Source: an uncultured Thermoplasmata archaeon
GTDB taxonomy: Archaea > Thermoplasmatota > Thermoplasmata > RBG-16-68-12
DNA: 64,000 nt
Assembly: GCA_963768855.1 (NCBI GenBank)
Contig: CAVYJM010000011.1
Location: forward strand, 224,001-288,000
Reading direction: 5' to 3'
The notes beneath the pieces were generated by a model, which was not told the DNA's origin, did no database searches, and saw only the letters and a list, made by a program, of their open reading frames with translations. A program made the translations under genes and the position numbers. Positions 5,085 through 32,939 of the stretch are shown here, piece by piece. Each line of letters starts with the position of its first letter. Position 1 is the first letter of the stretch.

Positions 5085-5493
5085 AGGTTCTTGGCCCCGC
5101 CTCGTTCTCGTGCCCAAGGGTCGGCCAGAAGGACTTGCCGCCGGCGAGTCGCCCAAGTTGCCTCTAGAATGCTCGCCAAGTCGCCTAGAAAGCCCTAGAA
5201 TCGGTCCGGACCGAAAAGCCATACCCAGGGGTGGATTTGTATTTCTTCAGCACACCCTTGGGAGCAGAGCCTACCGCTAGTTGGCACCCCGCCGGGAGCA
5301 CTCCTTTCGGGTTCTGGATCTGTGGGTTCCGGACCCACCCTGCGTCTCATCGACCCGGAGCCAGGTCCGTCGTCGTCCCGATCGCGAGCGGTCCGCGGAA
5401 GGCGACCGAGGGCGCTTCGGTGCAGCCGGCTTCCGCGTGAGGCCCGCAAAGACGCAAAGGACAAACCCCTCGCCGTACCTCTGGTGGCTGATC

Positions 5494-5649
5494 ATGCTGC
5501 ACCTCGCGGACCGGGACGGAAACGCATTCTGCGGAGCGACGGACGGCGCTCGCACGTTCGAGTACGAGCGAATCGACTGCCCGGATTGCATCCGGATGAT
5601 CCGGCAGGCCGAGCTGCAGGACCGTCGAGACGGAAGCGGTGGAGGATAG
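5494..5649 (+). CDS. Small putative Zn-binding protein (51 aa)
   Basis: MLHLADRDGNAFCG...IDCPDCIRMIR: H/C...CxxC spacing. Confidence 0.4.
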   Translation: MLHLADRDGNAFCGATDGARTFEYERIDCPDCIRMIRQAELQDRRDGSGGG

Positions 5650-5805
5650 ACCGAAACCCGTCGCATCCCACCCTGTTCGGGTCAATGGGGAGGGAGCGGG
5701 TACCCGCACAACGCGGTGGCCCATCTTGTTCGCGACCTTCTCTGGCCGCCCCTGGTTCCGAAACCTTTCAATCCTGACGACGTGGTGCAACCCTCGGCGG
5801 CAAGG

Positions 5806-6006
5806 ATGGTATCCTACAAGGTGGAGGTCGTGACGCCCACGGGATGGACATCGGCCCAGGTGATCACCAAACAGGTCCAGGCGAGGCTGGATGCGTTCGT
5901 GGCCGGAGGATGGCGTCTGTCGGGAATGGCAGGCCTCGCGGGGACCGGCGGATTTCTCGGAGGTGCGATGAACCCGTACCTGGTCCTGGTCTTCGAACAC
6001 GAATGA
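5806..6006 (+). CDS. Small DUF4177-like protein
   Basis: MVSYKVEVV...RLDAFVAGGWRL...YLVLVFE matches the YKV...LN.LG..GWEL...FxR pattern of DUF4177. Confidence 0.55.
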   Translation: MVSYKVEVVTPTGWTSAQVITKQVQARLDAFVAGGWRLSGMAGLAGTGGFLGGAMNPYLVLVFEHE

Positions 6007-6133
6007 CGGCCCGATGCGGGGGGAGGAGACCTCCTCCCTCTTCTCGACCCGAGGGCGACCGAGCCTCTACGATGAGGTCGTCCTGGCCGGGCGCGAGGAA
6101 GGTTCGCAGCGGCTCCAGCGACGGGTGCCGCGA

Positions 6134-6898
6134 TCAGCCCAGGCGTTGCGCGACGGCCATGGGGAGCGGGTCGTCCCGCCGCAGCGAGTGAAGTCCCGAT
6201 CCCTCGTCCGTGCTGTACGCCCCGACGAGGACCATCCCGGCGCGGGCGAGGAGCCTCCGGAGGACGGGCACGGAGAGGACGCGCGTGGAATACGTGTTCA
6301 CGAACGTCCGCCGGACGCGATCCCCGTCGAGCGCGAAGAAGCGGTTCTGGGCGGTGAGGAGGTGCCGCCGCGGGTCGAAGGCGAGATCGTAGAGCCAGAT
6401 GATCCGCATGGGGGCGTCGTGGTAGATCCAACCCGGGCCCTCCGTCTCCCGCTCCAGGGCCTGCGCGAATTCGAAGACGTACGCCCCACCCGGGCTCAGG
6501 TGCCGGCGGACCGTGCGGAGGTGTCCGAGCAGGTCTCGCTCCGTGAGGAGGTGCGTGAACGCCCCGTCCATGCAGACGGCTGCGTCGAACGTCCGTCCGA
6601 GATCGAAGCGTCGCATGTCCGCGCGAACGAACGTGAGGCTCGGGCGTCCGCGCGCTTTCGCCCGCGCGACTCGGAGCATGCCCGCGGAAGAATCGATTCC
6701 CGTGACTCGGTATCCGCGCGTCGCGAGGATGAGGGCGTGGTTTCCGGTGCCGCATCCGAGATCGAGTAGGGAAGCGGGTTGGCGAGGGAGGAATCTCGAG
6801 AAGACCGTCTGTAAGAGGGAGCACTCCGCAGGATAGTCGACGTCATCGTGGAGGACGTCGTAGTACTCCGCGATCCGATCGAAGAGGTTCCCCGTCAT
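6134..6898 (-). CDS. Class I SAM-dependent methyltransferase
   Basis: AEYYDVLH, LLDLGCGTGNH, VTGIDSS, ADMRRF. Confidence 0.85.
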   Translation of the reverse strand: MTGNLFDRIAEYYDVLHDDVDYPAECSLLQTVFSRFLPRQPASLLDLGCGTGNHALILATRGYRVTGIDSSAGMLRVARAKARGRPSLTFVRADMRRFDLGRTFDAAVCMDGAFTHLLTERDLLGHLRTVRRHLSPGGAYVFEFAQALERETEGPGWIYHDAPMRIIWLYDLAFDPRRHLLTAQNRFFALDGDRVRRTFVNTYSTRVLSVPVLRRLLARAGMVLVGAYSTDEGSGLHSLRRDDPLPMAVAQRLG

Positions 6899-7141
6899 GG
6901 CCGCTCGTCCGCCTGGCACGCCTTTCGCCGCGGACGGTCTCCCGGGCGGAGGCATGGCTCAGCAGGTTTTCAGGGTATCTTCGGGGGGAATCCTGATCGG
7001 AGCGTTCGTGATGCTGCTCCTCAAGCGCCGCAAGAGCGAGCCGGGGAGCGGGAACCCGCCCAAGGGGCGAGTCCCCCTGAGGGATCTGCCTCCCGGACTC
7101 AGGGCGAGGGTTCTTGCCCCGAGTGCCCTTTTCCTTCCCCG

Positions 7142-7918
7142 ATGCTCGCGCACGACGCGTTCGGACGGGAGGGCTCGCCCGCGGTTGCCCTCCTGCACGG
7201 CTGGCCCCTGGATCGGACGATGTGGTCCGAGGTCGCACCCCGCCTTGCGGATGCGGGCTTCCGCGTCCTGTGTCCCGATCTCTCCGCCTTCGGCCAGAGC
7301 CCCGCGCTCCCCGAGGATCGATGGACCGTCGAAGCTTACGCCGAGGAGGTCGCCGCCTTCCTGCACGGCGTCGGCGCAGGGCGAGTCGCGGTGGCCGCGC
7401 ACAGCTTCGGGGGGTACGTGGCCCTCGCCCTCGCGCATGCGGATCGGGACCTCATCGCAGGGCTCGGCCTCGTCTCCTCGCGGACCACGGCGGACACGGA
7501 GGCGGGCCGCGCCGGACGACTCGCGACGATCGAGAGAGTCCGAGCGCAGGGATCCCAGGCGCTCCTCCCGGACCTCGCGGGGAAGCTCCTGGCTCCCGCC
7601 GCCCCGGACGAGCTCCGGGTCCGGGCGACCCAGATGATTCAGGCCGCCCCCCCGCGGGCGGTCATCGCCGGACTCGCCGCGATGGCGGCGCGCCGGGACC
7701 GCACGGTCGTCCTGGAGTCCCTCCCGCGGCCCCTGCTCGTCCTGCACGGCGCCGCGGACCAGCTCATCCCGGTCGCGGAGGCCCCCAAGCCCTCGCGCCA
7801 GGCCGGCCCGCTTGACCGTATCATCCTCCCGGGGATCGGCCACATGCCGATGTGGGAGGCGCCTGCCAAGACGGCGGAGGCTCTGCAGGCCTGGGCCCGC
7901 TCCGCCCACGGTGTGTGA
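7142..7918 (+). CDS. Alpha/beta hydrolase
   Basis: LLHGWP, AHSFGG nucleophile elbow, HGAADQLIP, GHMPMWEAP. Confidence 0.85.
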   Translation: MLAHDAFGREGSPAVALLHGWPLDRTMWSEVAPRLADAGFRVLCPDLSAFGQSPALPEDRWTVEAYAEEVAAFLHGVGAGRVAVAAHSFGGYVALALAHADRDLIAGLGLVSSRTTADTEAGRAGRLATIERVRAQGSQALLPDLAGKLLAPAAPDELRVRATQMIQAAPPRAVIAGLAAMAARRDRTVVLESLPRPLLVLHGAADQLIPVAEAPKPSRQAGPLDRIILPGIGHMPMWEAPAKTAEALQAWARSAHGV

Positions 7919-21568: not shown

Positions 21569-22386
21569 GCTAAGCTCCCAACACGGGTAGGCGATCTGGG
21601 AGACTTAAGGGGAACGGCGCCCCACACGCCACGCTTTGCGAACTATGCTTGAAGCGGCGGGCAACAGAGGCCCGTTGGCCCAACGCTTGTCCTCTCAACA
21701 ATTCCAGTTCGAACTCGGCAGGATACGAATCCCTGGTATTCCTCCGCTGCGAATAACAGCCCTCTATTTGGACCAAGCTCGGTCTCGAATGTTCCCCTCC
21801 TTGCAGATGCTGGTTCTCGGTGCTAGGATAATCGGCACAGTCCCCATTGGTCAGTGGATCCCGGATGTCCACCGTTTCGGTTCCGGTCTTAGAGTGTCAT
21901 CCATCCTGAATTCCTCACGGCCGAACGCCCCCGGGAGCGGATCCTCACGGGCGCGAATCTAGCCGAGCCTACATCCGTCAACCCTCTATGGGCCGACTGG
22001 CATGGGAAGGGTCCTCCCATGGGGGCCAAGGACAAAAGGCCCGCGAAAAGACGCTCTCCCCGGATGTCCAAGGTGGGTTAGTCACCCGAACATGACGTCC
22101 CGTCTAGTTGGGCCATAGATGTGTCAGGGGTCGGCCAGCCGGGGCGGCAATTAGCCACCCGAGCCGCCAGCGAGTTCTGGCGCACACACGCCATTGTTCC
22201 TCGGGAGCCTTCGCAGGACCACTAGAAATGGGATTCCAGCGCGGTCAGGCCTTGCGGGCGCCTATCCCGCAGTCGGGTCCCGGAACGCCTAGGAACCCAA
22301 CCGCTGCGTGGCTACGGGCCAACGCCGGTGTCATGCCCAGGTTAGGTCAGGGCTTCGGTCTTCACAAGGCGGTCGTACCTACGCCG

Positions 22387-25314
22387 TTAGTCCCGGCTCA
22401 TTATGGCTCGCAGCGATTCAATCCTGGCCGCGAGGCGATCACAGAGCTCACCAACCCGAAGCTCCTCGGCGGAGGAGCCGATCGCCTTCGCCACGACAGT
22501 ATCGATTGCTGTCCGACCTTCAAAGTGGTTCTTGAGTTGTTCAAGGAGCGGAGGGAACGGAACCGACTTCCAGCGGTTATAGACGGTGAGGAGCTCGCGC
22601 TTCGCATCGTCGGACAAGGCTTTCGGGTTGAGCACCTGGAGCCCGACCAGGGTGTCCCGGAGCCACCCCATCCAAGATCCACGTACCTCCGTCCGGTTGT
22701 CCATGAGTTGTGCAAGGTGCAGGGTCGAATTCCACCAGAGTGCGAGGAGTCGCGCATCTTCAATCGAGCCCGTCTTTATCGACCAGAAACTCCAAGTCGG
22801 CGGTATTGGCACTGGAGATACGACCCCGAGGAAGTGGGTGCCTGGAGCTGCTAGGTCCACGTTGTTACGGCCTGCAGCAACGAGGTAGGCCTCCCGGCTC
22901 TCTAGGTGCGGCAGGCGTTTTTCAAGGATTGCGTCCGGTTTCGGATCATCCCAGAATGGTTCGTCTCCGTCAAAACGACCAATCACGATGTAATCCGGCG
23001 GGTCAAGGATTTCAAGTGTCTCCATCCCGGCAGCGGAGCGGATGGAGGGGCGGAGCACTGCCTTCGGAATCATGACCCTCGCTCCCGAACTGAGGCTGAC
23101 CGCTTCGAACTTGTCGCCCAAGTCGTTCTCGATGCGCCAGTTCATTATTACGTCAGCTGTGCGCGGCCTAGAGACTACGGTGTTCTTTACATCCACCCGG
23201 TCACTGTGTTTGTGGAATCGTATCCCCTGAACCACGCGAACGGCTACCTCCGCAAGAGGTGCAAGCGCGGGGGACGAGGGGAGTGTGTAGCTTCCAGAAA
23301 CTCGCTCCGGGAGGAGTCTATGCCAGTCTCTTGAAATGCGGAGAGCTTCCTGAGTTGTGGTTGACACGCGCAGCTTCATCTGCTCGGCGCTATCCCGGAA
23401 CGACTTCGATACCTGGCCGGCATGAGTAATGGCCTTGAGCAGGTTCGCAAGCGCATCAGCGTTTGCGTCCGTAATCATCTCCTGCACCGTTGCGATAACA
23501 CACGGTTGATCGGCTGTGCCGGGCCTCTTCTTCGAGGCGACGAGTAGTATTTCCCTGAAGGATGTACTCTCACTGAACGCGGAACGATAACCAGATTCAA
23601 TGACATATTCCACGTTGTATCGCTCGGAGAGCAGACGCCTCACGCCTTCAGAACTCAGTTGCTGCAGAACGGTGGAAGGCAATACCATCGCCATCCGTCC
23701 GCCATCGTTCAGAAATCTGTCCGCCAAGAAGACAAAGTAGCCGAAGAAGTTCTGTTCCCTGCTCGTATATCCGGCGTAGTCCTCAAATTCAGCCGTCAGT
23801 ATCTTGCGGAACTCCTTCTTGACATGCTGCTTCCGTGTAAATGGCGGGTTCATGATGACAACGTCGACGGGTCGTGCATCGAATCCCTTCCCTGCGCCAG
23901 CACCCGACACCGCACCAGCACGTATCTTGCGGTTCTCCGATTCACCCTCTGTAAAGTCTCGAATGGATGCCTGTCCTCGTGGCATCTCCCGCTGCAGTGA
24001 TCGAATCGCGGTGCCTGGTTTGAGGTTGGTCGAGTCGTACACGGCGACCCGGACCTTGTCGGTGAGATAGCCTGGGTTCCTCAGTGCGAGTTGAACCACC
24101 GCAAGGTGAGCCGCGAACGGCATGATGTCGATACCGGTTAGGTCTTCCTCCAAGAATCGCCGGTGAGTCTCCTCGTCCATCGGTTTGCCCAGGAGTTCCG
24201 CCTTGCGCTCGTAGGCTGCCATGAGCAAAGTGCCGGAGCCACAGGCGAAGTCAGCCACGCTGTCGGCGGAGGATTCGATTGCCAGCTTCGCAAGCAGGCG
24301 TCCGGCCATAGGATTTGTGTAGTATGCCGCGACGGGCTTCCGAACCTCCAGGGGAATCAGGGAGTGGAACATATTCCCGAGCAGATCACGGGTGAACTGC
24401 TCCGGCTGGAGTTCGGAGATGATTCGGACCATGTCCCGGATGTACTCAATTGCCTCCTGAGGAAAGAGGGACGCCACATCAAAGTCGAAGACCGCTTGGT
24501 AATCGTCCTTCAAAACTAGGTCGAAGTAGCTCTCCTTCAGGTCCGCAGGCCGCTGTAACGTCTCAGGCTTGATGGTGGGATACCCACGTTGTTCGAGGAT
24601 CCGATAGAAGACCATCTGATTGACCACCAGGTACGCTGCTGCACGGCGGGCGGTCTCCAATTCCCCTTTGTCTCGGGGCATTGTGGCGATGATGTGCTCA
24701 AATAGCGTTGGGAATTCGCCGTGGGCAGGAAGGAGGTCTGTGAGGTCACGGAAACTCATGTCACGCATCAACTGTACGAACTCGTTAGGGTCGGGCGGTT
24801 TCGGCTTTTCCATGGCCTCTTTGAGCCACTGAGGCAATTGCTCAAGCTGACCCCGAAAGAGGCTGGTGGGCCTCCCCTTGATCTTCAGCATCCCCCGGTA
24901 CTCAACGCCGCGCAGGAGGACCGCAGGGGACACTCGGTCGATTCGTCCTTGCCGTATCCGCGCTCTCAACGACTCAGGGTATCCGATCAGGAAGTAGCCT
25001 GAAGCACCCGAGATGTCGCCGAACCCAATCGCCTGGTTGTACCCGTCCACGTACTTCGAGTCCCACTCCCCTTCGCCGTAGAGGATCGCTCCGTTTCTCA
25101 ACTCGAAGTCGGGCTTGGTGCGTCTGTGCCCACGCAAACTTGATCGCGCACTGACTTGCGTGGTGATGCTCAGTTGCTGGTCCCGGAGGAACGAGGCCAT
25201 GAGGTCGTTGACTGTGTCCTCTGTGACCTCGGGCACGGCGCTGGAAGAGGTTTCGGTACTTAAGAACAACTCGCTTCCAATCGACTGGAAGAACACCTGG
25301 ATTCGGGCGTTCAT
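22387..25314 (-). CDS. Fused restriction endonuclease-N6 adenine methyltransferase (type IIG-like)
   Basis: N-terminal KPDF...YGEGE nuclease-like motif; DFACGSGT (motif I) before MNPPF (motif IV); long C-terminal TRD-like region. Confidence 0.82.
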   Translation of the reverse strand: MNARIQVFFQSIGSELFLSTETSSSAVPEVTEDTVNDLMASFLRDQQLSITTQVSARSSLRGHRRTKPDFELRNGAILYGEGEWDSKYVDGYNQAIGFGDISGASGYFLIGYPESLRARIRQGRIDRVSPAVLLRGVEYRGMLKIKGRPTSLFRGQLEQLPQWLKEAMEKPKPPDPNEFVQLMRDMSFRDLTDLLPAHGEFPTLFEHIIATMPRDKGELETARRAAAYLVVNQMVFYRILEQRGYPTIKPETLQRPADLKESYFDLVLKDDYQAVFDFDVASLFPQEAIEYIRDMVRIISELQPEQFTRDLLGNMFHSLIPLEVRKPVAAYYTNPMAGRLLAKLAIESSADSVADFACGSGTLLMAAYERKAELLGKPMDEETHRRFLEEDLTGIDIMPFAAHLAVVQLALRNPGYLTDKVRVAVYDSTNLKPGTAIRSLQREMPRGQASIRDFTEGESENRKIRAGAVSGAGAGKGFDARPVDVVIMNPPFTRKQHVKKEFRKILTAEFEDYAGYTSREQNFFGYFVFLADRFLNDGGRMAMVLPSTVLQQLSSEGVRRLLSERYNVEYVIESGYRSAFSESTSFREILLVASKKRPGTADQPCVIATVQEMITDANADALANLLKAITHAGQVSKSFRDSAEQMKLRVSTTTQEALRISRDWHRLLPERVSGSYTLPSSPALAPLAEVAVRVVQGIRFHKHSDRVDVKNTVVSRPRTADVIMNWRIENDLGDKFEAVSLSSGARVMIPKAVLRPSIRSAAGMETLEILDPPDYIVIGRFDGDEPFWDDPKPDAILEKRLPHLESREAYLVAAGRNNVDLAAPGTHFLGVVSPVPIPPTWSFWSIKTGSIEDARLLALWWNSTLHLAQLMDNRTEVRGSWMGWLRDTLVGLQVLNPKALSDDAKRELLTVYNRWKSVPFPPLLEQLKNHFEGRTAIDTVVAKAIGSSAEELRVGELCDRLAARIESLRAIMSRD

Positions 25315-25414
25315 GAGAGGTTCATTGAGGAGGTGTCGGTGGACTATTCCGAATACAATTAGGCTACAAGCAATTCATCCTGGGCCATAATCGGCACTTG
25401 CCAGAGCCTCGCGG

Positions 25415-26122
25415 TCACGGCGGTGCTGCCGTGGGGCACAACATCGGCTTGTGCCGATGTCCCACTGCTCCGGACACCAAGTTGCCCTTGGAATCGAGAG
25501 TCGCATCGAACGCTTCCACGCAGCGCTGGCACTCCTCGATAAGGAATTCACCCATGGTCATCATGTTCACCTCGTTGTAGCGATAGTTGACCGTTGCCAG
25601 CCATTGATTTCGCTTCGCGTTCGAAAGGTCGTGGGTCAAGAATAGCATGCAGTCGTGTTGTGACTCGTACAGCTCAACAGACTGGTTAACGATTTCCTCA
25701 GGGGTCTTGCCGCACTTGATGTGTCTATAGGCCGGCGTCGCGTGGAACATGTTGTTCCGAACATCTTGGATCATCCGCAGCACGTGGACCGCCTGATGCC
25801 CGCGATGGCATGGAACTATGAAGTCAGGAGTGGCCGTGACCACTGTCTGCATGGACGCCGTGTGAAGAACCTTCGCCGTGTACCTCTCAAGGGCCGCCTT
25901 CACCAAGCCTATCGAGCTTACCGTGACAGCCCTCAGCGCCGCGCTTCGAAGGTCTTTCATGTCGGCGAACGGTGAGGCCTTTCCCGACGCTTTCGCACCT
26001 GCAAGGGAAGCGGTGAGTTCCTGGTCATGATCCTTGAGATACGCAATAGCGAAGTCCACGATGTTAGCTTCAATGACTTCCCTCTTCAACTCATCGAGTG
26101 CCACTGTCACAGGCATCACCAT
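25415..26122 (-). CDS. HEPN-like protein (putative RNase)
   Basis: Helical protein with RNNMFH (Rx4H) and upstream ALERY; overlaps the UDG-like gene. Confidence 0.5.
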   Translation of the reverse strand: MVMPVTVALDELKREVIEANIVDFAIAYLKDHDQELTASLAGAKASGKASPFADMKDLRSAALRAVTVSSIGLVKAALERYTAKVLHTASMQTVVTATPDFIVPCHRGHQAVHVLRMIQDVRNNMFHATPAYRHIKCGKTPEEIVNQSVELYESQHDCMLFLTHDLSNAKRNQWLATVNYRYNEVNMMTMGEFLIEECQRCVEAFDATLDSKGNLVSGAVGHRHKPMLCPTAAPP

Positions 26123-26966
26123 GCGCCTGCTCTTCAGCTCTAAGGCCGAGAAGGAGCCGGGCGAGGGACGCCACGATGCTTTCGGAGGAGCCGCCCCGGC
26201 GGTATGTTGGATGAACCACGGTGACAATCGTAGTGACCCCTTCGGAGCCACGGCTCCGATACAAGGCGGCAAACTTGTCTTCCGACTCCGCCATCTTCTC
26301 CGGGCTGGCGAGGGGCAGGTGCTCCAGGCCACTTTTCCCAAGCAGCAGCAGCCACTTGGGCTTGAGTATTCCCAGCTCGTGTTTCAAATATCGCTGCGGA
26401 CACAAGTGTTGCATGTTGTTTGTCGGCTCGGATTCGGGCCAATCCGGCGAGCACTTGACCATTTCCAGGAACGCCACCGACTCAAGAGTTTGTGCGAGGG
26501 TATCGGGGCTATCGAGCAGCCTTTGGCCCCCAACGAATACTTCATCGTCACGAAGCTCCCAATCATCCCGAACGACCAGCGCTGCGTAACACGCAAATCG
26601 GTGCCAGAAGACCGAGCCACTGTAGTCCTGGGGGTCATTTCCGAAGCGCGTTTTCTTCGCACCCGAAGCCAAGATGTATTGTGCGTGGAGAGTGAGTTCG
26701 AGGATTGCGGACAAGCCTCCGTCATGATTCAGGTTCAGACCCAAGGCGACCAGGCGCCTTGCGCTTGATTCGTAATCAGGTCCGATGTATGGGATTTGGA
26801 TTTTGTTCCAATCCGCTTTTCCATCGCTCCTTCCGTTCCAACATTGGAACCTGTCGGGGCAGGACTCGTGGAGAAGCAGCTCGTCCAGCTTCTGACCCGA
26901 ATCGTCGAGGACACCGTTCCGCTTGTACAGTCTTAGGAGCTCGGTGAACCTAGCCTCAGTCGGCAA
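26091..26966 (-). CDS. Uracil-DNA glycosylase superfamily protein
   Basis: PYIG..Y...LVALGLN, FLEMVKCSP, ELGILKPKWLLLLGK, VVHPT; TTG start. Confidence 0.65.
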   Translation of the reverse strand: MPTEARFTELLRLYKRNGVLDDSGQKLDELLLHESCPDRFQCWNGRSDGKADWNKIQIPYIGPDYESSARRLVALGLNLNHDGGLSAILELTLHAQYILASGAKKTRFGNDPQDYSGSVFWHRFACYAALVVRDDWELRDDEVFVGGQRLLDSPDTLAQTLESVAFLEMVKCSPDWPESEPTNNMQHLCPQRYLKHELGILKPKWLLLLGKSGLEHLPLASPEKMAESEDKFAALYRSRGSEGVTTIVTVVHPTYRRGGSSESIVASLARLLLGLRAEEQAHGDACDSGTR

Positions 26967-27211
26967 CGATTCTGACAGTGATCGCTCGCCCGATAAGGGT
27001 TCCGGGACCGGGTTGAACGGCTAACGATGCGTGGGGTTCTGTGGTGGAGGCGGGCCGGAGAGAGCCGCCGGCGCGTGTCGGGGGCAAAACGGAACAAGCA
27101 GCTATAATCCTTTAAGTACACAAATGGCCAATGTGGAGCAGCCGAGCTGTGGGCGGCGGAGGGATTGCGGTAGCCTGCGCGTCGCCGACTAGATAGGGTC
27201 AGTTGATAGAC

Positions 27212-27667
27212 ATGGGTTCGAGAAGTGGAGGGGACTTCGGGAAGTTCGCGGGGGCGCATGAGTCGAGCGCCGTTAGCACCGCGATTCAAGAAGTCGAAAC
27301 CACTCTATCCGACAACAAGTCTGCAAGGATTATCGTTGGTACCGCAATCGATGTCTTGGCGCTGTCCAACCCCGCGATTGGAACTCTTGTGGCCACCTAC
27401 AAAGTGTCGAAAGTGATCTACCAGATTGCATCCAAGGCCAGCGACGCGTACAGTGAAACTCGCGACGCGAACACGGCAATCAAGGCCGCGGCTGGCGAGG
27501 TGCTCCACATAGGTGTTGGAGCGACGAGGGACCAGGCCGTCGGCGGCCTGGTCGACGTCGGGTGGACAGTCATGAAAGCGTCAGCAGGCATCTCCACGAA
27601 CGAGATGGAGGACAGAATACTCACGAGCGCTGCGAAGAACACATTGTCGGAGGTGTTGCCAAAGTGA
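27212..27667 (+). CDS. Hypothetical protein with N-terminal MGSRSGG (QatB-like candidate)
   Basis: 151 aa helical Ala/Gly/Thr-rich protein; first gene of the QueC-like operon; TATA-like TTTAAGTA at 27111-27118. Confidence 0.55.
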   Translation: MGSRSGGDFGKFAGAHESSAVSTAIQEVETTLSDNKSARIIVGTAIDVLALSNPAIGTLVATYKVSKVIYQIASKASDAYSETRDANTAIKAAAGEVLHIGVGATRDQAVGGLVDVGWTVMKASAGISTNEMEDRILTSAAKNTLSEVLPK

Positions 27668-27954
27668 GCGAGGAGGAAATCGAGCGCATAATGGCGGCAA
27701 ACTATGCCAACGTCTTTAGAGAGATGCTCCTCGCGAGTTTCAAGACCAACCCGGAAGTGAGTCCGGACTACCTTGCTCAGTCGATCAAGAAACAACGGGA
27801 GGTCGAGAAAGAGATATCGCGGCTCTCCAGTGAGATGGCCAAGGCACTTGTACTGAAACTCAAGACTGAGGGCTACCTCACCAAAGAACCACCGGAACCG
27901 AAGCTGACATCGCTGATCAAGGAAACGCTCGCTGAATTCAGGGTGGAACAATGA
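27664..27954 (+). CDS. Small helical hypothetical protein (96 aa)
   Basis: GTG overlaps the previous TGA and its TGA overlaps the next ATG (translational coupling). Confidence 0.55.
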   Translation: MSEEEIERIMAANYANVFREMLLASFKTNPEVSPDYLAQSIKKQREVEKEISRLSSEMAKALVLKLKTEGYLTKEPPEPKLTSLIKETLAEFRVEQ

Positions 27955-29321
27955 CTGGAGTCCGTATCGTTGGCGGTCACGCAGCGAAGGGAGTGGCCGA
28001 CTTCTTCATTAGAACGGAGGTGGAGGGGATTCGCAATGAATCGAGGATGAAAGTCGATTTTGGAGATCTGACTCGTTACCTATCTGCACGAGACATGGAC
28101 TTGGCCAGCATTGCCGCAGGGTTGTTCGAATGTGAGGGGTTGTTGAGGAACGAGCTAGTCAGTCTCGATGACGGCTTGGAGATTGTCCTATGCCAAGGGG
28201 GCCTAAGGAACGAGGAATTGTGTCGAACCCTCACCGATCTTCTCTCATTCACCCTGCGTCAACGACCCCACCTCGAACTTCTTCCGGCCAAGAAGGCCTG
28301 CGCTGCCGGATCGGGCACAGCCGAAACATCCTTGCGGAGTGTGTGCCTCTTTTCAGGCGGAATAGACAGTTTAGCAGGGATCCTGAGGGTTCAACGGGAT
28401 CTCGCCCCCACGGCGGGGATCTTCGTCTCGCACAGCAACAGCATGCTCGGCTGCGTGAACAATCTCCAGAGGGACTTTCTCAATGCAAAAGAATTTCCAA
28501 TTCACAGAGTGAGTATTCAGGACGGCCGTCTTGGTCTTCAGCAGATGAGGGGGTTTACGTACCTAGCAATCGCAGCCGTCGTGGCCAAGATGCACGGAAC
28601 AAACAACATCGTGGTTTCCGAGACAGGTCAAACCATGTTCCTGCCGCCCTTCGCAGCGCTCGACGAGATAACCATGACAACGCATCCGACGCTGATTGGA
28701 ATCACCAAGTCCGTGCTGCACGAATGCCTTGGAATCGACTTCAGTGTCTTCGAGCCATTTTCGAATCTGACCAAGGCAGAGGTTGTCTCCCTTTGTGAGA
28801 TGAAGGAAGCTATCCCCGCGACAAACTCGTGCAGGACGAGCCGCTGGGCCAGACAACGGTACTCACACTGCGGCACCTGCTATGGTTGTCTCGTTAGAAG
28901 GGTCGGATGTCTCGTTGCTGGGGTGAAGGATGCCCACTACGCAAGGGATGTTCTCGTCGAGGGCGTAGGACGGAAGGCGCTGGGGCGGCGGCCGGGCGAA
29001 ACCATCCAACCGCATAACCTCGCTGATCTCCAGGCATTGCTGAGGTTCGCGAGAGACGTGTTGGAGGATGAGCTCGATGAGACAACGCGTTTCAAGATTG
29101 AAGCGTTCAAGAAGGAAGACCTCTACAAGCGAGCCGCGCTCGACGTGCTGGTCGGAACATACCTGTTGTACGATGAGACCAAGCAAGGTCACAATCCCCT
29201 GGTTCGGAAGTTCTACGAGGAATGCAAAAACGACGGGTTGGTTAGCTCGGACACCGCCAACAATCGAATTGCGGAAGTCCGCGACCAAAGACGTCAGCCT
29301 GACTTTGACACGAAGCTTTGA
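27951..29321 (+). CDS. QueC-like PP-loop ATPase (QatC/Cap9-type)
   Basis: LFSGGIDS, QQMRGFTY, SETG...TTHP, PFSNLTKAEVV, TNSC, HCGTCYGCLVRR; 456 aa with N-terminal extension as in defence QueC homologues. Confidence 0.85.
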   Translation: MTGVRIVGGHAAKGVADFFIRTEVEGIRNESRMKVDFGDLTRYLSARDMDLASIAAGLFECEGLLRNELVSLDDGLEIVLCQGGLRNEELCRTLTDLLSFTLRQRPHLELLPAKKACAAGSGTAETSLRSVCLFSGGIDSLAGILRVQRDLAPTAGIFVSHSNSMLGCVNNLQRDFLNAKEFPIHRVSIQDGRLGLQQMRGFTYLAIAAVVAKMHGTNNIVVSETGQTMFLPPFAALDEITMTTHPTLIGITKSVLHECLGIDFSVFEPFSNLTKAEVVSLCEMKEAIPATNSCRTSRWARQRYSHCGTCYGCLVRRVGCLVAGVKDAHYARDVLVEGVGRKALGRRPGETIQPHNLADLQALLRFARDVLEDELDETTRFKIEAFKKEDLYKRAALDVLVGTYLLYDETKQGHNPLVRKFYEECKNDGLVSSDTANNRIAEVRDQRRQPDFDTKL

Positions 29322-29367
29322 GGGTATTGGACTGCAATCTTGCGAAGGGGAGGATGCCGAGGCTTCG

Positions 29368-29505
29368 GTGAGCGCCATTCGCGATTCGCACAGCCCGGAG
29401 GCGAAGGTCGTCCTTTTCAACGAGGGCGATCGGTATCGTCGGTTCAACCACGAGAGGTTCCGGGACCTCGTGGAGCGACTGAGAATGCGAGGAGTGCTTT
29501 GGTGA
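29368..29505 (+). CDS. Possible 45-aa ORF
   Basis: MSAIRDSHSPEAKVVLFNEGDRYRRFNHERFRDLVERLRMRGVLW; protein-like composition, no family recognised. Confidence 0.25.
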   Translation: MSAIRDSHSPEAKVVLFNEGDRYRRFNHERFRDLVERLRMRGVLW

Positions 29506-29625
29506 GGTATGGAAGAGGGACGAGCTGCTTCGTAACACGTTCCATTGCTGTCCGGATTCAGGCTTTCCACTCGTTTCATTCCCACGACAAGTCGTTATAG
29601 GGGGTTCGGACATTCGGAGGCAGAA

Positions 29626-30345
29626 ATGAGCGCGTCCTCGACGATAGAGTGGACGAACGCGACATGGAATCCGATAACTGGCTGCACCAAGGTTAGCCAG
29701 GGCTGTAAGCATTGCTACGCGGAGCGGTTTGCCGAGCGCTTCCGAGGCGTTCCAGGTCACCCCTATGAGCAGGGTTTCGACCTGCGCATGTGGCCTGACC
29801 GGTTGACTTTGCCTCTGCAATGGCCGGAGCCTAGGCGCATATTCGTGAACTCAATGAGCGATTTGTATCACGAGCGGGTCCCACTCGGTTTCATCACCGC
29901 TGTGTTTGACACTATGGTCCAAGCCCGGTGGCACACGTTTCAGATTCTCACGAAGAGGGCAACTCGTCTCGCGCAACTCGGTCCCACGCTGCCGTGGCAG
30001 TCCAACATATGGCAGGGGGTAAGCATCGAAAACATGGATGTGGCCTGGAGGGCAGACGAACTCCGGAAGGTTCCAGCCGAAGTACGATTCCTGTCGCTCG
30101 AACCGCTGTTGGGACCCCTTGACTACCTGGACCTGACCGGAATCCAATGGGTGATCGTAGGCGGGGAAAGCGGGCCGGGCGCGAGACCGATGAAGAAGCA
30201 GTGGATCAGGTCACTTCGCGACCGGTGTCGTCGAGAGGCAGTACCTTTCTTCTTTAAGCAGTGGGGCGGGCCGATCAAGAGTCGGACCGGTCGGATACTA
30301 GATGGAAAGACGTGGGACGAGATGCCTTCCGTGAATGCCTTCTGA
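29626..30345 (+). CDS. DUF5131 (phage Gp37/Gp68) three-Cys radical-SAM-like protein
   Basis: IEWTNATWNPITGCTKVSQGCKHCYA, FVNSMSDLYH, FQILTKR, SLEPLLG, WVIVGGESG, FFFKQWGG. Confidence 0.92.
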   Translation: MSASSTIEWTNATWNPITGCTKVSQGCKHCYAERFAERFRGVPGHPYEQGFDLRMWPDRLTLPLQWPEPRRIFVNSMSDLYHERVPLGFITAVFDTMVQARWHTFQILTKRATRLAQLGPTLPWQSNIWQGVSIENMDVAWRADELRKVPAEVRFLSLEPLLGPLDYLDLTGIQWVIVGGESGPGARPMKKQWIRSLRDRCRREAVPFFFKQWGGPIKSRTGRILDGKTWDEMPSVNAF

Positions 30346-31336
30346 CCTATCTGAGGACCTGCCGGTCGACAAAGTCGCAATTCACACTCGTCAGAAACAT
30401 GCCCTGCTGGAGGCATACCTCAGGGTTTGGACTCAGAATGTTGCGACCAACTGGGGACCGGATTCACCGAGCCTAGACATCTACGACCTGTTCGCGGGTA
30501 CCGGGCAGTGTGTTGAGCGTGAGTATCGAAAGGACCGCTGGCCGGGGACTGCCATTGTGTCGGCTGAGCAACTCAAGGTCTACCCAAGCAGGAGGAAATG
30601 CGTCCTGTTCCTGAATTCGTGGGCGGAGGACCCGATTGAGTGTTCGCGTAATCTCGATGCGCTCGTGCAACGGGTCCAGGCAACTGGCCTGGAGCGGCCC
30701 AATCGAAAAGTCAGACTGATCTCTGAGGAACTGGCTGCCGCTTTGCCAATCGCCCTAGAGGTCCAGTCTCCAAGGAGGAACTATCCGAGCCTGTGGATAT
30801 TGGACCCTTATGCAGCATCTGACTTGCCCTGGGAAGCTGTAGAGCTGATTGCGAACCAAGTCGGGACATACACGACCAAAGCCGGTGACTCAGTGAGTCG
30901 TCGCCCGGAACTCTTCATCAACTTCATGACCAGCTCACTACAACGAAACATCCACAACCTGCCCATGGTGACCCGTGCGCTCGGCTGTTCCGCGCCGGAA
31001 TGGGAGGATCATCTCCGCGAGGTGGAATCGTCAGGCGGGACATCCCTCGATGCTCTCACGACGTTCTATTTCTCCCAGCTGCAGGAACTCTATAGCCGGG
31101 ACCCGGAGGCCACGACGATCACGGGGAAAGACGGAAACCCTGTCTCGGTGGTGTTCCTCGCCGTCGAGCGGCCGGCTGCCTGGTACTCAATTAGGAGGGA
31201 ATCCATCCCTCGCTTCGAAGACTGGCGGGAGCACAAGTACGAACCTCGGAAGGAATGGGTCCGCAGGAGGCACAAGATTGACCGCAACATGCCGAAGGGG
31301 CAGAAACAAACCGAACTCGAAGACTCGTATACATAG
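30335..31336 (+). CDS. tcmP: Three-Cys-motif partner protein TcmP (methyltransferase-like fold)
   Basis: TRQKHALLEAYL, YDLFAGTG, ILDPY, ELFINF; overlaps the DUF5131 stop. Confidence 0.8.
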   Translation: MPSDLSEDLPVDKVAIHTRQKHALLEAYLRVWTQNVATNWGPDSPSLDIYDLFAGTGQCVEREYRKDRWPGTAIVSAEQLKVYPSRRKCVLFLNSWAEDPIECSRNLDALVQRVQATGLERPNRKVRLISEELAAALPIALEVQSPRRNYPSLWILDPYAASDLPWEAVELIANQVGTYTTKAGDSVSRRPELFINFMTSSLQRNIHNLPMVTRALGCSAPEWEDHLREVESSGGTSLDALTTFYFSQLQELYSRDPEATTITGKDGNPVSVVFLAVERPAAWYSIRRESIPRFEDWREHKYEPRKEWVRRRHKIDRNMPKGQKQTELEDSYT

Positions 31337-31720
31337 GTCACGCCTCGCGCAGCTGATGCTGCAAGGACACTGCTTGTGAATAGGGTCGGGGTCAGTCGTC
31401 GCTGCTGAATGCCCCGGCGACGGCGCTAACTACTGCACCGACTAGCGCCCCAATTGGCCCGCCGATGAAGAAGCCAATCGTCAGGCCGGGCACAGCGAAG
31501 AGCACCACTTTGTAGGCCATGTGAGCAGGATTTCCTAGTCACTTTAACTGGTGTTTCCATGGGTGAGTGAAAGTACTCGCCTGCTGAGCTATTGCTGGTG
31601 ACCCTGACGGCGGGGTGTCGGACCTTGCTGCCCCCACAGCGAGTCTCCGCTGTACTCCTTACAATCGGTACGTGGATTTCATCGCCCCGCAAGTGTTGCC
31701 TGACCGTGGGTTGAGGAAGG

Positions 31721-31948
31721 ATGCCTAGAATCTTCGGACCGATTGGTATCTCTCGAAGGGGAAAACTCTATTTCTCCTTTGGCTCGCTCTTCAGGAGCGC
31801 CTTCAAACCACCGCGTAAGTCGAAGCCTTATCGAGCGCGGTGCGCGGCTTTCACCAAGAATGGCAACCCTTGCAGGAACTATGCCTCGATTGGAGCTTTT
31901 TGCCGTATTCATGCAAGTAACTTCGCTTCGGGTTTTCGCGAGCGATAG
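31721..31948 (+). CDS. Small basic C3H zinc-finger protein (DUF5763-like)
   Basis: RCAAFTKNGNPCRNYASIGAFCRIH. Confidence 0.6.
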   Translation: MPRIFGPIGISRRGKLYFSFGSLFRSAFKPPRKSKPYRARCAAFTKNGNPCRNYASIGAFCRIHASNFASGFRER

Positions 31949-32137
31949 CCTCCTTCGGAGGCCGCCCGAGCAGCACCACAGGAGAACGGTGCCCGCTCTT
32001 GCGGGCGGGCGTGAAGGGGACCGACTCACCGGGATTCCTGCGCTACCCTTTTACCTACCCGCGAAGGTACAGCGTCCAGGGCGTGCTACCCTGAGTGCAA
32101 AAGGTTGGCCGTTTCATCCGAAGAACTTTGCTATCAT

Positions 32138-32939
32138 CATGGCGATTGTGTTCTTCGGGCTCCTCGTCGTCACAAGCTACATCGAGTCGGGTCTGCCGGC
32201 ACAACCAGCATGGTATCTGACAGTGACCGCGATACTCGGCGTTCTCGGCGGTTCTTGCTTCACTGCATGGCTGAGCATGAGCATCTACGAGTTCATCAGC
32301 AACCAAGGGCAGGAACGCGGATACAAGCGCGAGTTCGATGTTGACCTCACGAAGAACCTGTACGGTCCGCTCTACGATGAGCTGATGATCGCCCGCATCG
32401 GAATCACGTACAATTTCGAATTGCGAGAGCTACCTCAACTAGACTCGCTCAAATGGAAGTACCTGAGGCTGCTGGTGCCAGAGAGCCTGCTGGATAAGCG
32501 CGAGAGGTTGACCAGCCTGGCGGCTTCGTACAGGCAAAGTTTCGGCAGAACTGGCTACGCCCTTGATGTTAGGGGCGCCCAGCTCGCCACGGCCTTCGTT
32601 GAGCGCCTGGGAGGTAGCATGAACGTTGAGTCCTTTTCAGGGCAGAAGGACAGGTTGCAGGGCGGAGAGTGGCGGGCAGCTCTTGGTTCCGAGAGCCTTG
32701 AGGCAAACCTTGACAGGTTATGTGGCGCGGTTGGTTCGGCAACAAAGCCTGCATCACAGAACGAGGCGAGCCAACTGGCGGGTGAATTCAAGCGGGATTT
32801 CACAGACGCGATAAAGAGCGACCCAGCTGCCGTCGCGCTGATCGGACTCCGTGGGGAGCTGGACGCCCTAGCTTCGGAAGTGATAACCCAATTGAAGCCG
32901 CTAATCCAGACCCCCTACCTCGGAGAGCAAGCGAGCTAG
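32138..32939 (+). CDS. Hypothetical protein with two N-terminal TM helices and helical soluble domain
   Basis: MAIVFFGLLVV... and WYLTVTAILGVLGG...; start uncertain. Confidence 0.55.

Follow-up and report, generated by a model that had tools for sequence, protein, structure and literature searches.

What might an enzyme of the QueC family be doing in an archaeon behind two small helical proteins, the first of which begins with Met-Gly? The question is raised by three genes, here called A, B and C, at positions 27212–29321 of the window, that is, the whole stretch of 64,000 nucleotides analysed from an uncultured Thermoplasmata archaeon (contig CAVYJM010000011.1 of assembly GCA_963768855.1, positions 224,001–288,000). 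The three open reading frames (ORFs) are coupled just as the first-pass annotation of the window had described them, by the 4-nt overlaps GTGA (27664–27667) between A and B and ATGA (27951–27954) between B and C. Protein deazaguanylation was reportedly first described in 2025, and QatABCD is said to have been introduced as an anti-phage system by Gao et al. 2020. We lean cautiously towards the view that A-B-C stands on its own, arrived by horizontal transfer and belongs with Qat/Cap9, tagging the N-terminal glycine of A; for this module we infer the chemistry, the binding, the acyl donor and a role in defence.

The enzyme itself is the best anchored component. C matches the PADLOC QatC model (E = 1.5e-22, 78 bits; other QatC-like proteins reach 190–198 bits) and, over residues 97–331 only, the NCBIfam QatC model NF041925 (E = 1e-24), whereas its match to Pfam QueC is weaker (E = 3e-06) and its score with TIGR00364 is 12.7 bits against a cut-off of 150.3 bits, so that it is not a canonical QueC. 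A profile built from 26 C homologues (alignment A2) and compared with PDB chains retrieved QatC 9vlk (6.5e-20) and QatC 9zee (3e-17), followed by QueC 2pg3 (1e-4) and Cap9 9nto (5e-3), the alignment between C and QatC spanning residues 44–333. The initial description of C as QatC/Cap9-like is thus upheld by PADLOC, NCBIfam and the PDB comparison as far as QatC is concerned, but not for Cap9, which is reached at 5e-3 only. Besides the motifs listed in Table 1, the invariant or nearly invariant positions in A2 include R200, Y204, E224, G226, P269, T274 and K275 (T274 and K275 are invariant; P269, like C310 of the Cys cluster, is kept at 90% or more; C307 was noted for the window protein), and the signature of QatC has been defined as SGGxDS, ExG, HP, P(x)4TK and a Cys cluster (PMC13329287). 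The TxT..HP motif of C stands where QueC and Cap9 have Tyr/Asp; in QatC, too, two invariant threonines replace the deazaguanine-reading Tyr/Asp of QueC and Cap9 (PMC13279940). Mutation of the SGGxDS serines (S156A/S161A) or of the pocket residues T278/T280 abolishes defence by Qat (PMC13279940).

C shares with canonical QueC the PP-loop ATP pyrophosphatase fold, the SGGxDS loop and a C-terminal Cys cluster, but canonical QueC is a stand-alone protein of ~220 aa found in a queD/queE context, and C is twice as long. Judged by its sequence, C is a member of the QatC branch of the QueC family, neither a housekeeping QueC nor a Cap9; it would be a PP-loop ATPase with N- and C-terminal extensions, and we propose that it acts as an ATP-dependent ligase. 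The host genome carries QueC genes of its own (262, 161 and 121 bits), one of which (C6:267597–268238, 262 bits) adjoins a QueE-like radical-SAM gene and another (C11:79579–80190) QueD, which makes C an extra paralogue. The concern that C might group with the housekeeping enzymes is answered both by these separate QueC, QueD and QueE-like genes and by the tree described below, which places C with QatC-like proteins. The same genes imply that 7-carboxy-7-deazaguanine (CDG) should be available in the cell.

The proposed substrate is A, with Gly2 as the putative acceptor. Fourteen close homologues of A were found, and in an alignment of 39 A sequences (A3) only G2 and R4 are invariant. When a hidden Markov model of A3 was run against 1.84 billion representatives, 169 proteins (representative clusters) were recovered at E ≤ 1e-3; of the best 150, 112 open with [M]G[GST]R from residue 1 onwards, and the rest mostly keep MG with a different fourth residue, have a start placed too far upstream or are N-terminally truncated fragments. 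Over the 112 representatives, G2 and R4 are present in 112/112 each and G14 in 96/112. At the nucleotide level, the codon directly before this Gly is a start codon in 43 of the 43 loci with a complete A (ATG in 29, TTG in 7, GTG in 7), no other Leu or Val codon precedes the conserved Gly in any of the 43, and in six loci an in-frame stop lies directly 5' of the start codon. An in-frame TTG at 27203, three codons 5' of the ATG of gene A, had been named as a possible true start that would undo the prediction; since a start codon stands directly before the Gly in every complete locus, the comparative data favour the ATG at 27212, and the anticipated conservation of Gly2 in homologues, always after a start codon, is borne out as well. 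The sequence GTTGAT just 5' of gene A, in the window and in its closest relatives, resembles a Shine–Dalgarno element. The AlphaFold2 (AF2) model of A is all-helical (predicted local distance difference test score, pLDDT, 65.6). In eukaryotes, the signal for N-myristoylation (MGxxxS/T) is similar to the family start M-G-x-x-x-S, probably for no other reason than that both require an N-terminal glycine that can be reached.

Neither A nor B has a match in Pfam, PADLOC or NCBIfam (QatB included, E up to 0.1). B is predicted by AF2 to be a helical bundle (pLDDT 92.6; helices 3–28, 33–37, 41–68 and 78–91), and its homologues align from a common N-terminus (alignment A4). The relation between the two small proteins is revealed by natural fusions. 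In two proteins of 246 aa each, P0178 and P0200, a B domain follows an A domain; residues 140–246 of P0178 match the B profile A4 with 96% probability (E = 3e-9, 99 columns), and at its locus (L174) the fused gene (L174:5001–5741) is overlapped by a C gene of 445 aa. These fusions indicate that A and B behave as halves of one partner. A third protein, P0222 (729 aa, L175:496–2685, an ORF continuous under translation table 11), is an A-B-C fusion with an A domain at its N-terminus (A-profile positions 1–107, E = 3.4e-6), a weakly B-like middle and a C domain 29% identical to the window C (E = 4e-45), so that partner and enzyme can share one polypeptide with Met-Gly at its extreme N-terminus. 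The suggestion of a split QatB therefore holds in so far as the partner comes in two pieces, as the 246-aa fusions attest, but homology to QatB finds no support: comparison of A, B and concatenated A+B with 30 canonical QatB sequences by hhalign gave probabilities of 1.0–1.9%, comparison with 34 short MGTS partners gave 1–2%, and the NCBIfam QatB model NF041924, which detects the partner at locus L045 (9e-18), did not match P0178 or P0200 (E up to 1). Because no QatB profile matches and the hhalign probabilities stay at 1–2%, we regard A/B as the counterpart of QatB in function, and perhaps as its very distant homologue. Fold searches with the A and B models returned only generic helical matches, from a fold library that may predate the QatB entries. 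A protein-atlas feature search with P0178 and A yielded scores ≤ 0.90 and low recognition, and its RHS, PT-TG and DUF637 pre-toxin leads were set aside as too weak. A predicted complex of C, B and A(2–151) scored 0.91 and a control with C swapped for an unrelated protein 0.79; it was not used as evidence.

Related loci were collected by A2 scans of species-representative genomes and metagenome contigs, followed by tblastn, with a C relative required to reach at least 120 bits. The resulting 56 loci have both small genes preceding C wherever upstream DNA is present, with overlaps of −4 between A and B in 30/43 loci and between B and C in 22/43; the recurrence of this order with −4 overlaps in dozens of independent loci is far beyond chance. 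For 132 QatC-like proteins, a tree with the host QueC as its root (a quick IQ-TREE search, with SH-like approximate likelihood-ratio test, SH-aLRT, support only) places all 37 enzymes with an A/B-type partner, including the two from fused loci, in one clade (SH-aLRT 100). An annotated QatC of a Vibrio qatABCD plasmid falls outside this clade and groups with a protein whose partner matches the NCBIfam QatB model. Other QatC-like clades pair with partners of 187 aa starting MGTSxNxxSPxTPxW or of ~260 aa starting MGH[IV]RLG. The C proteins thus co-diversify with the partner type, apart from canonical QatC. Several small archaeal QueC clusters were left unanalysed in an earlier survey (PMC13329287).

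Both of these other partner types were seen repeatedly during the locus scans. The ~260-aa partner (MGH[IV]RLGxLPxxxKW) lies 5' of a QatC-like protein of 610–660 aa, mostly in Pseudomonadota, and is unrecognised by the NCBIfam QatB model. The 187-aa partner stands between a 303-aa gene and a QatC (PADLOC, 198 bits), and shares with canonical QatB the N-terminal tail alone (hhalign 60%, 18 columns).

Within the A/B clade, two groups can be distinguished. The window clade (clade I) comprises the window, L083–L086, L001/L002, L088/L089 and L003, one of them a Thermoplasmata metagenome-assembled genome (MAG); here A has 143–152 aa and no fourth gene is conserved. The sister clade, the larger of the two, with C proteins 27–35% identical, is found in Woesearchaeota, Nanoarchaeota, Aenigmatarchaeota, Pyrinomonadaceae and other Acidobacteriota, and in a Eubacteriales MAG. 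Its loci contain a coupled upstream gene, X, for a protein of 167–270 aa with about three predicted transmembrane (TM) segments; all 28 copies belong to one family, which has no match in Pfam, PADLOC or NCBIfam, and the X profile finds nothing in the genome of the window or in the clade-I loci. Loci that lack X have a longer A with a hydrophobic segment near residues 37–60 (maximum 19-residue Kyte–Doolittle value 1.4–2.2), whereas alongside X it has 117–123 aa and is not hydrophobic. In clade I, A may take the place of X at the membrane; for the four-gene form, X itself is a candidate effector. Two parts of the first-pass annotation are not borne out by this comparison: that the system is a stripped one, given that the sister clade, which holds most members, has a fourth gene coupled upstream, and that it is a purely archaeal variant, given its Acidobacteriota and Bacillota members.

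The cassette appears to have entered its host from elsewhere. The host genome has 2.87 Mb and 65.9% GC (archaeal small-subunit rRNA, 1494 bits), and between 22 and 32 kb of the window (22001–32000) the GC content is 56–58%, as opposed to 66–70% in the flanks. This drop marks a horizontally acquired island that holds, besides A-B-C, a restriction–modification (R-M) methyltransferase (a 975-aa N6-methyltransferase of the type IIG/Eco57I kind), a gene resembling uracil-DNA glycosylase (UDG) for a UDG-fold protein, and DUF5131 together with TcmP (PADLOC PDC-M30/M41). Searches of 24 genomes of the same genus and 16 of the same order returned no C (E up to 1e-20), and the A profile drew no match from a 400-genome sample of the host's phylum; many genomes in these sets are incomplete MAGs. 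The plasmid collection contained only canonical QatC, at ≤ 28% identity, and the phage collection had no match. A single supersystem that joins A-B-C to DUF5131/TcmP or to the UDG-like gene was considered and rejected, these neighbours, like the methyltransferase, being absent near every other A-B-C locus; as they do not recur, the cassette is autonomous. The expected absence of QatA, QatD and a CD-NTase was confirmed for the ORFs at 22387–32939, among which Pfam, PADLOC and NCBIfam identified no KAP NTPase, TatD or CD-NTase, and the genes listed for those related loci that were inspected include neither QatA nor QatD.

How such a module might work can be sketched from Cap9 chemistry, the essential G2 of QatB, the sufficiency of QatBC and the NDG-modified GTSKAY peptide of QatB. 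Met1 of A would be removed, and the α-amine of Gly2, on a short flexible tail, would enter the active site of C, which would activate a carboxylate with ATP and acylate Gly2 to give an N-terminal amide. The TxT pocket leaves the choice of acyl donor wide; CDG from the host archaeosine pathway is the most likely candidate, in which case Gly2 would end up with the kind of N-terminal 7-amido-7-deazaguanine adduct that has been reported for Cap9/CdnD and QatC/QatB. The helical partner that presents the tail would consist of A and B together, the two being one chain in some relatives, and modification would turn A-B into the armed or active state of an antiviral module. Its output might run through the 3-TM protein X in the sister clade and through the hydrophobic segment of A in the window clade. 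A bolder version, which we put forward tentatively and with rather little confidence, is that A-B-C, with or without X, is a self-contained nucleobase-conjugation switch whose modified protein either is, or gates, a membrane effector (A or X).

The precedent in cyclic oligonucleotide-based antiphage signalling systems (CBASS) of type IV is Cap9, which modifies the N-terminal Gly of the CD-NTase CdnD (Wassarman et al. 2025, Science 389:1347; bioRxiv 10.1101/2025.04.06.647259; PDB 9nto). Cap9, too, belongs to the QueC family and acts, as proposed for C, on a partner's N-terminal Gly once Met has been removed; the partner motif is conserved and glycine-rich. However, Cap9 is minimal (~185 aa) with a Tyr/Asp CDG pocket, whereas the window C has 456 aa and a TxT pocket; moreover, the type IV CBASS partner is a nucleotidyltransferase with an M(G/S)G(G/S)GG start, and type IV CBASS depends on Cap10 (TGT-like) as well as on a Cap effector. 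The A-B-C operon lacks all of these; Pfam, PADLOC and NCBIfam identified neither a CD-NTase nor a TGT domain in it.

The likeness to QatBC is stronger, which brings up the rather unlikely alternative that A-B-C is a diverged true QatBC, with A and B as the halves of an ancestral split QatB and the same mechanism. Structures of Qat are available (9zee/9zef, 9vlk/9vll; PMC13279940, PMC13639016, PMC13376578). In both systems a ~450-aa QueC-family enzyme with N- and C-terminal extensions, SGGxDS, TxT..HP, P(x)4TK and Cys/Zn motifs, that is, a member of the QatC superfamily, is encoded in a defence island directly downstream of a coupled, all-helical partner with a Met-Gly tail that is flexible in QatB and presumably so in A (PMC13279940), and the partner is of QatB size whether summed (A+B, 247 aa) or fused (246 aa). 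The two-component core of Qat, moreover, can act without QatA or QatD: QatB and QatC alone defend against some phages, with G2 of QatB essential, and QatA and QatD of the Pseudomonas aeruginosa Qat are dispensable against some phages (PMC13279940). The two also differ in several respects. The partner in A-B-C is made by two genes (151 + 96 aa) and is undetectable as QatB, being missed, fusions included, by NF041924, missed by PF28083 and aligned by hhalign at 1–2%; its tail, MGGR[KR]SYS in consensus (MG[GS]R[KR]; MGSRSGG here), is shorter than the MGTS..P.W tail of QatB and lacks the conserved Pro and Trp; A-B-C dispenses with QatA and QatD; in the tree, the C proteins sit in a deep clade of their own; a 3-TM protein is added in the sister clade; and archaea (DPANN, Thermoplasmata) make up most of the hosts identified, beside some Acidobacteriota and Bacillota.

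A less likely account again makes C a ligase or amidotransferase for another carboxylate, or for a nucleic-acid or small-molecule target, with A and B as regulators, scaffolds or adaptors. It would fit the diversification of the QueC superfamily into LarE, GMP synthase and amidotransferases (PMC13329287) and the threonines that occupy the place of the deazaguanine-reading Tyr/Asp, from which a distinct substrate has been suggested (PMC13279940); yet the strict succession of start codon, Gly2 and a 14-residue tail has no easy explanation other than use of the N-terminus itself, A retains its place at the extreme N-terminus in the A-B-C fusion, and NDG was detected on Gly2 of QatB, in the peptide GTSKAY, for a QatC of the TxT type (PMC13639016). 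Least likely among the alternatives is an addiction or toxin–antitoxin-like module, or mobile cargo, in which A or X is a membrane toxin held in check or matured by C-dependent modification. The sporadic distribution, the low-GC island, the flanking degenerate 49-nt repeat, the hydrophobic A found only where X is absent and the conservation of X as a 3-TM family are compatible with it, but the 2.46 kb bounded by the repeat contains no integrase or transposase, the recurrent neighbours are defence genes, and the closest characterised relatives, Qat and type IV CBASS, are antiviral, although abortive infection and a toxin module are compatible with each other.

The tagging of Gly2 of A by C, which we prefer to these alternatives, has to be set against several observations. 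C lies far below the equivalog cut-off of NF041925 (87.2 versus 280 bits), and no alignment with QatC is obtained over its C-terminal extension, the region that in QatC binds QatB. No similarity to QatB or CD-NTases could be detected in A or B, the tail of A, at ~18 residues, is shorter than the 30–90-residue tails of QatB, and the TTG at 27203, three codons upstream, is a less likely alternative start of gene A. The QatC reaction could not be reconstituted by one group, and the TxT pocket of QatC was read as a hint of a substrate other than CDG (PMC13279940). Finally, the setting in a defence island amounts only to guilt by association.

Should the bolder version be right, the switch outlined above would be widespread in DPANN, in other archaea and in some bacteria; no protein-deazaguanylation system would have been described in archaea before it, and the downstream output of QueC-type N-terminal tagging would for the first time be directly readable. 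The Qat reaction and the role of the modified partner are still debated (PMC13279940), and A-B-C offers an independent, compact branch that pairs a QatC-type enzyme with a Met-Gly partner lacking detectable QatB similarity and that contains natural fusions of enzyme and proposed substrate. The membrane protein coupled to the module in most members could be the missing effector. Deazaguanylation chemistry would be extended to archaea, in small and tractable operons suited to asking what the tag does. The models of PADLOC 2.0 do not recognise A-B-C as a system, giving a weak QatC match only and none for A, B or X, and no description of the family was found in the literature searched.

Table 1. 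Features of the A-B-C cassette in the window and at related loci (aa, amino acids; coordinates with an L prefix refer to the respective locus).
Feature	Position	Strand	Description
Gene A	27212..27667	+	ATG start, TGA stop; 151 aa; N-terminus MGSRSGGDFGKFAG (MGSRSGG)
N-terminal tail of A	27212..27253	+	14 residues; consensus M-G-G-R-[KR]-S-Y-S-x-x-x-[VIL]-[VLI]-G; in the window MGSRSGGDFGKFAG
Gene B	27664..27954	+	GTG start, TGA stop; 96 aa
Gene C	27951..29321	+	ATG start, TGA stop; 456 aa
PP-loop (pyrophosphate-binding) of C	28353..28370	+	SGGIDS, residues 135–140; S135, G136, G137, D139 and S140 invariant in A2
TMTTHP pocket of C	28671..28688	+	Residues 241–246; T241, T243, H245 and P246 invariant; aligned with STRTTHP of QatC 9vlk (HMMER)
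Cys cluster of C	28830..28889	+	C294, C307, C310 and C313, then LVRR; predicted zinc site; C294 and C313 invariant, C310 nearly so
Left repeat copy	26998..27046	+	Non-coding remnant: last 16 codons of a small-gene family, stops just upstream
ORF with right repeat copy (29456–29504)	29368..29505	+	45 codons; 3' fragment of a ~110-aa family; outside the module
X, examples	L102:3725-4264; L006:4495-5022; L009:4566-5138		25 other loci
MGH[IV]RLG-type loci	L052:4920-5741 + 5728-7671		Also L044, L016, L074 and ~20 more
MGTS-type locus, Granulicella sp. S156	L014:4422-5333, 5333-5896, 5896-7176		~30 similar loci
Loci with ubiquitin-like genes	L171:11568-14206; L173:11402-14522; L084:2861-4255		

A-B-C is bracketed by a 49-nt direct repeat (76% identical), whose copies lie 2458 bp apart. 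Paralogues of the ~110-aa family to which the repeat-bearing fragments belong were located elsewhere in the host genome by tblastn and blastn (G000:C6:875734–875865, 80%, and C8), and the degenerate pair suggests an old insertion or a recombination scar. At the other A-B-C loci the neighbours include type I and type IIG R-M, HEPN, SLFN_AlbA_2, SMODS, an SMC-like ATPase, SNF2 with DUF1156, and ubiquitin-like E1/E2/JAB operons. Three clade-I loci adjoin genes for ubiquitin-like conjugation, namely HFX_2341_N/WHD_DUF6293 with Multi_ubiq, Prok-E2_E and ThiF, or else a JAB-ThiF fusion, an adjacency that may have a functional basis or may be due to chance within defence islands.

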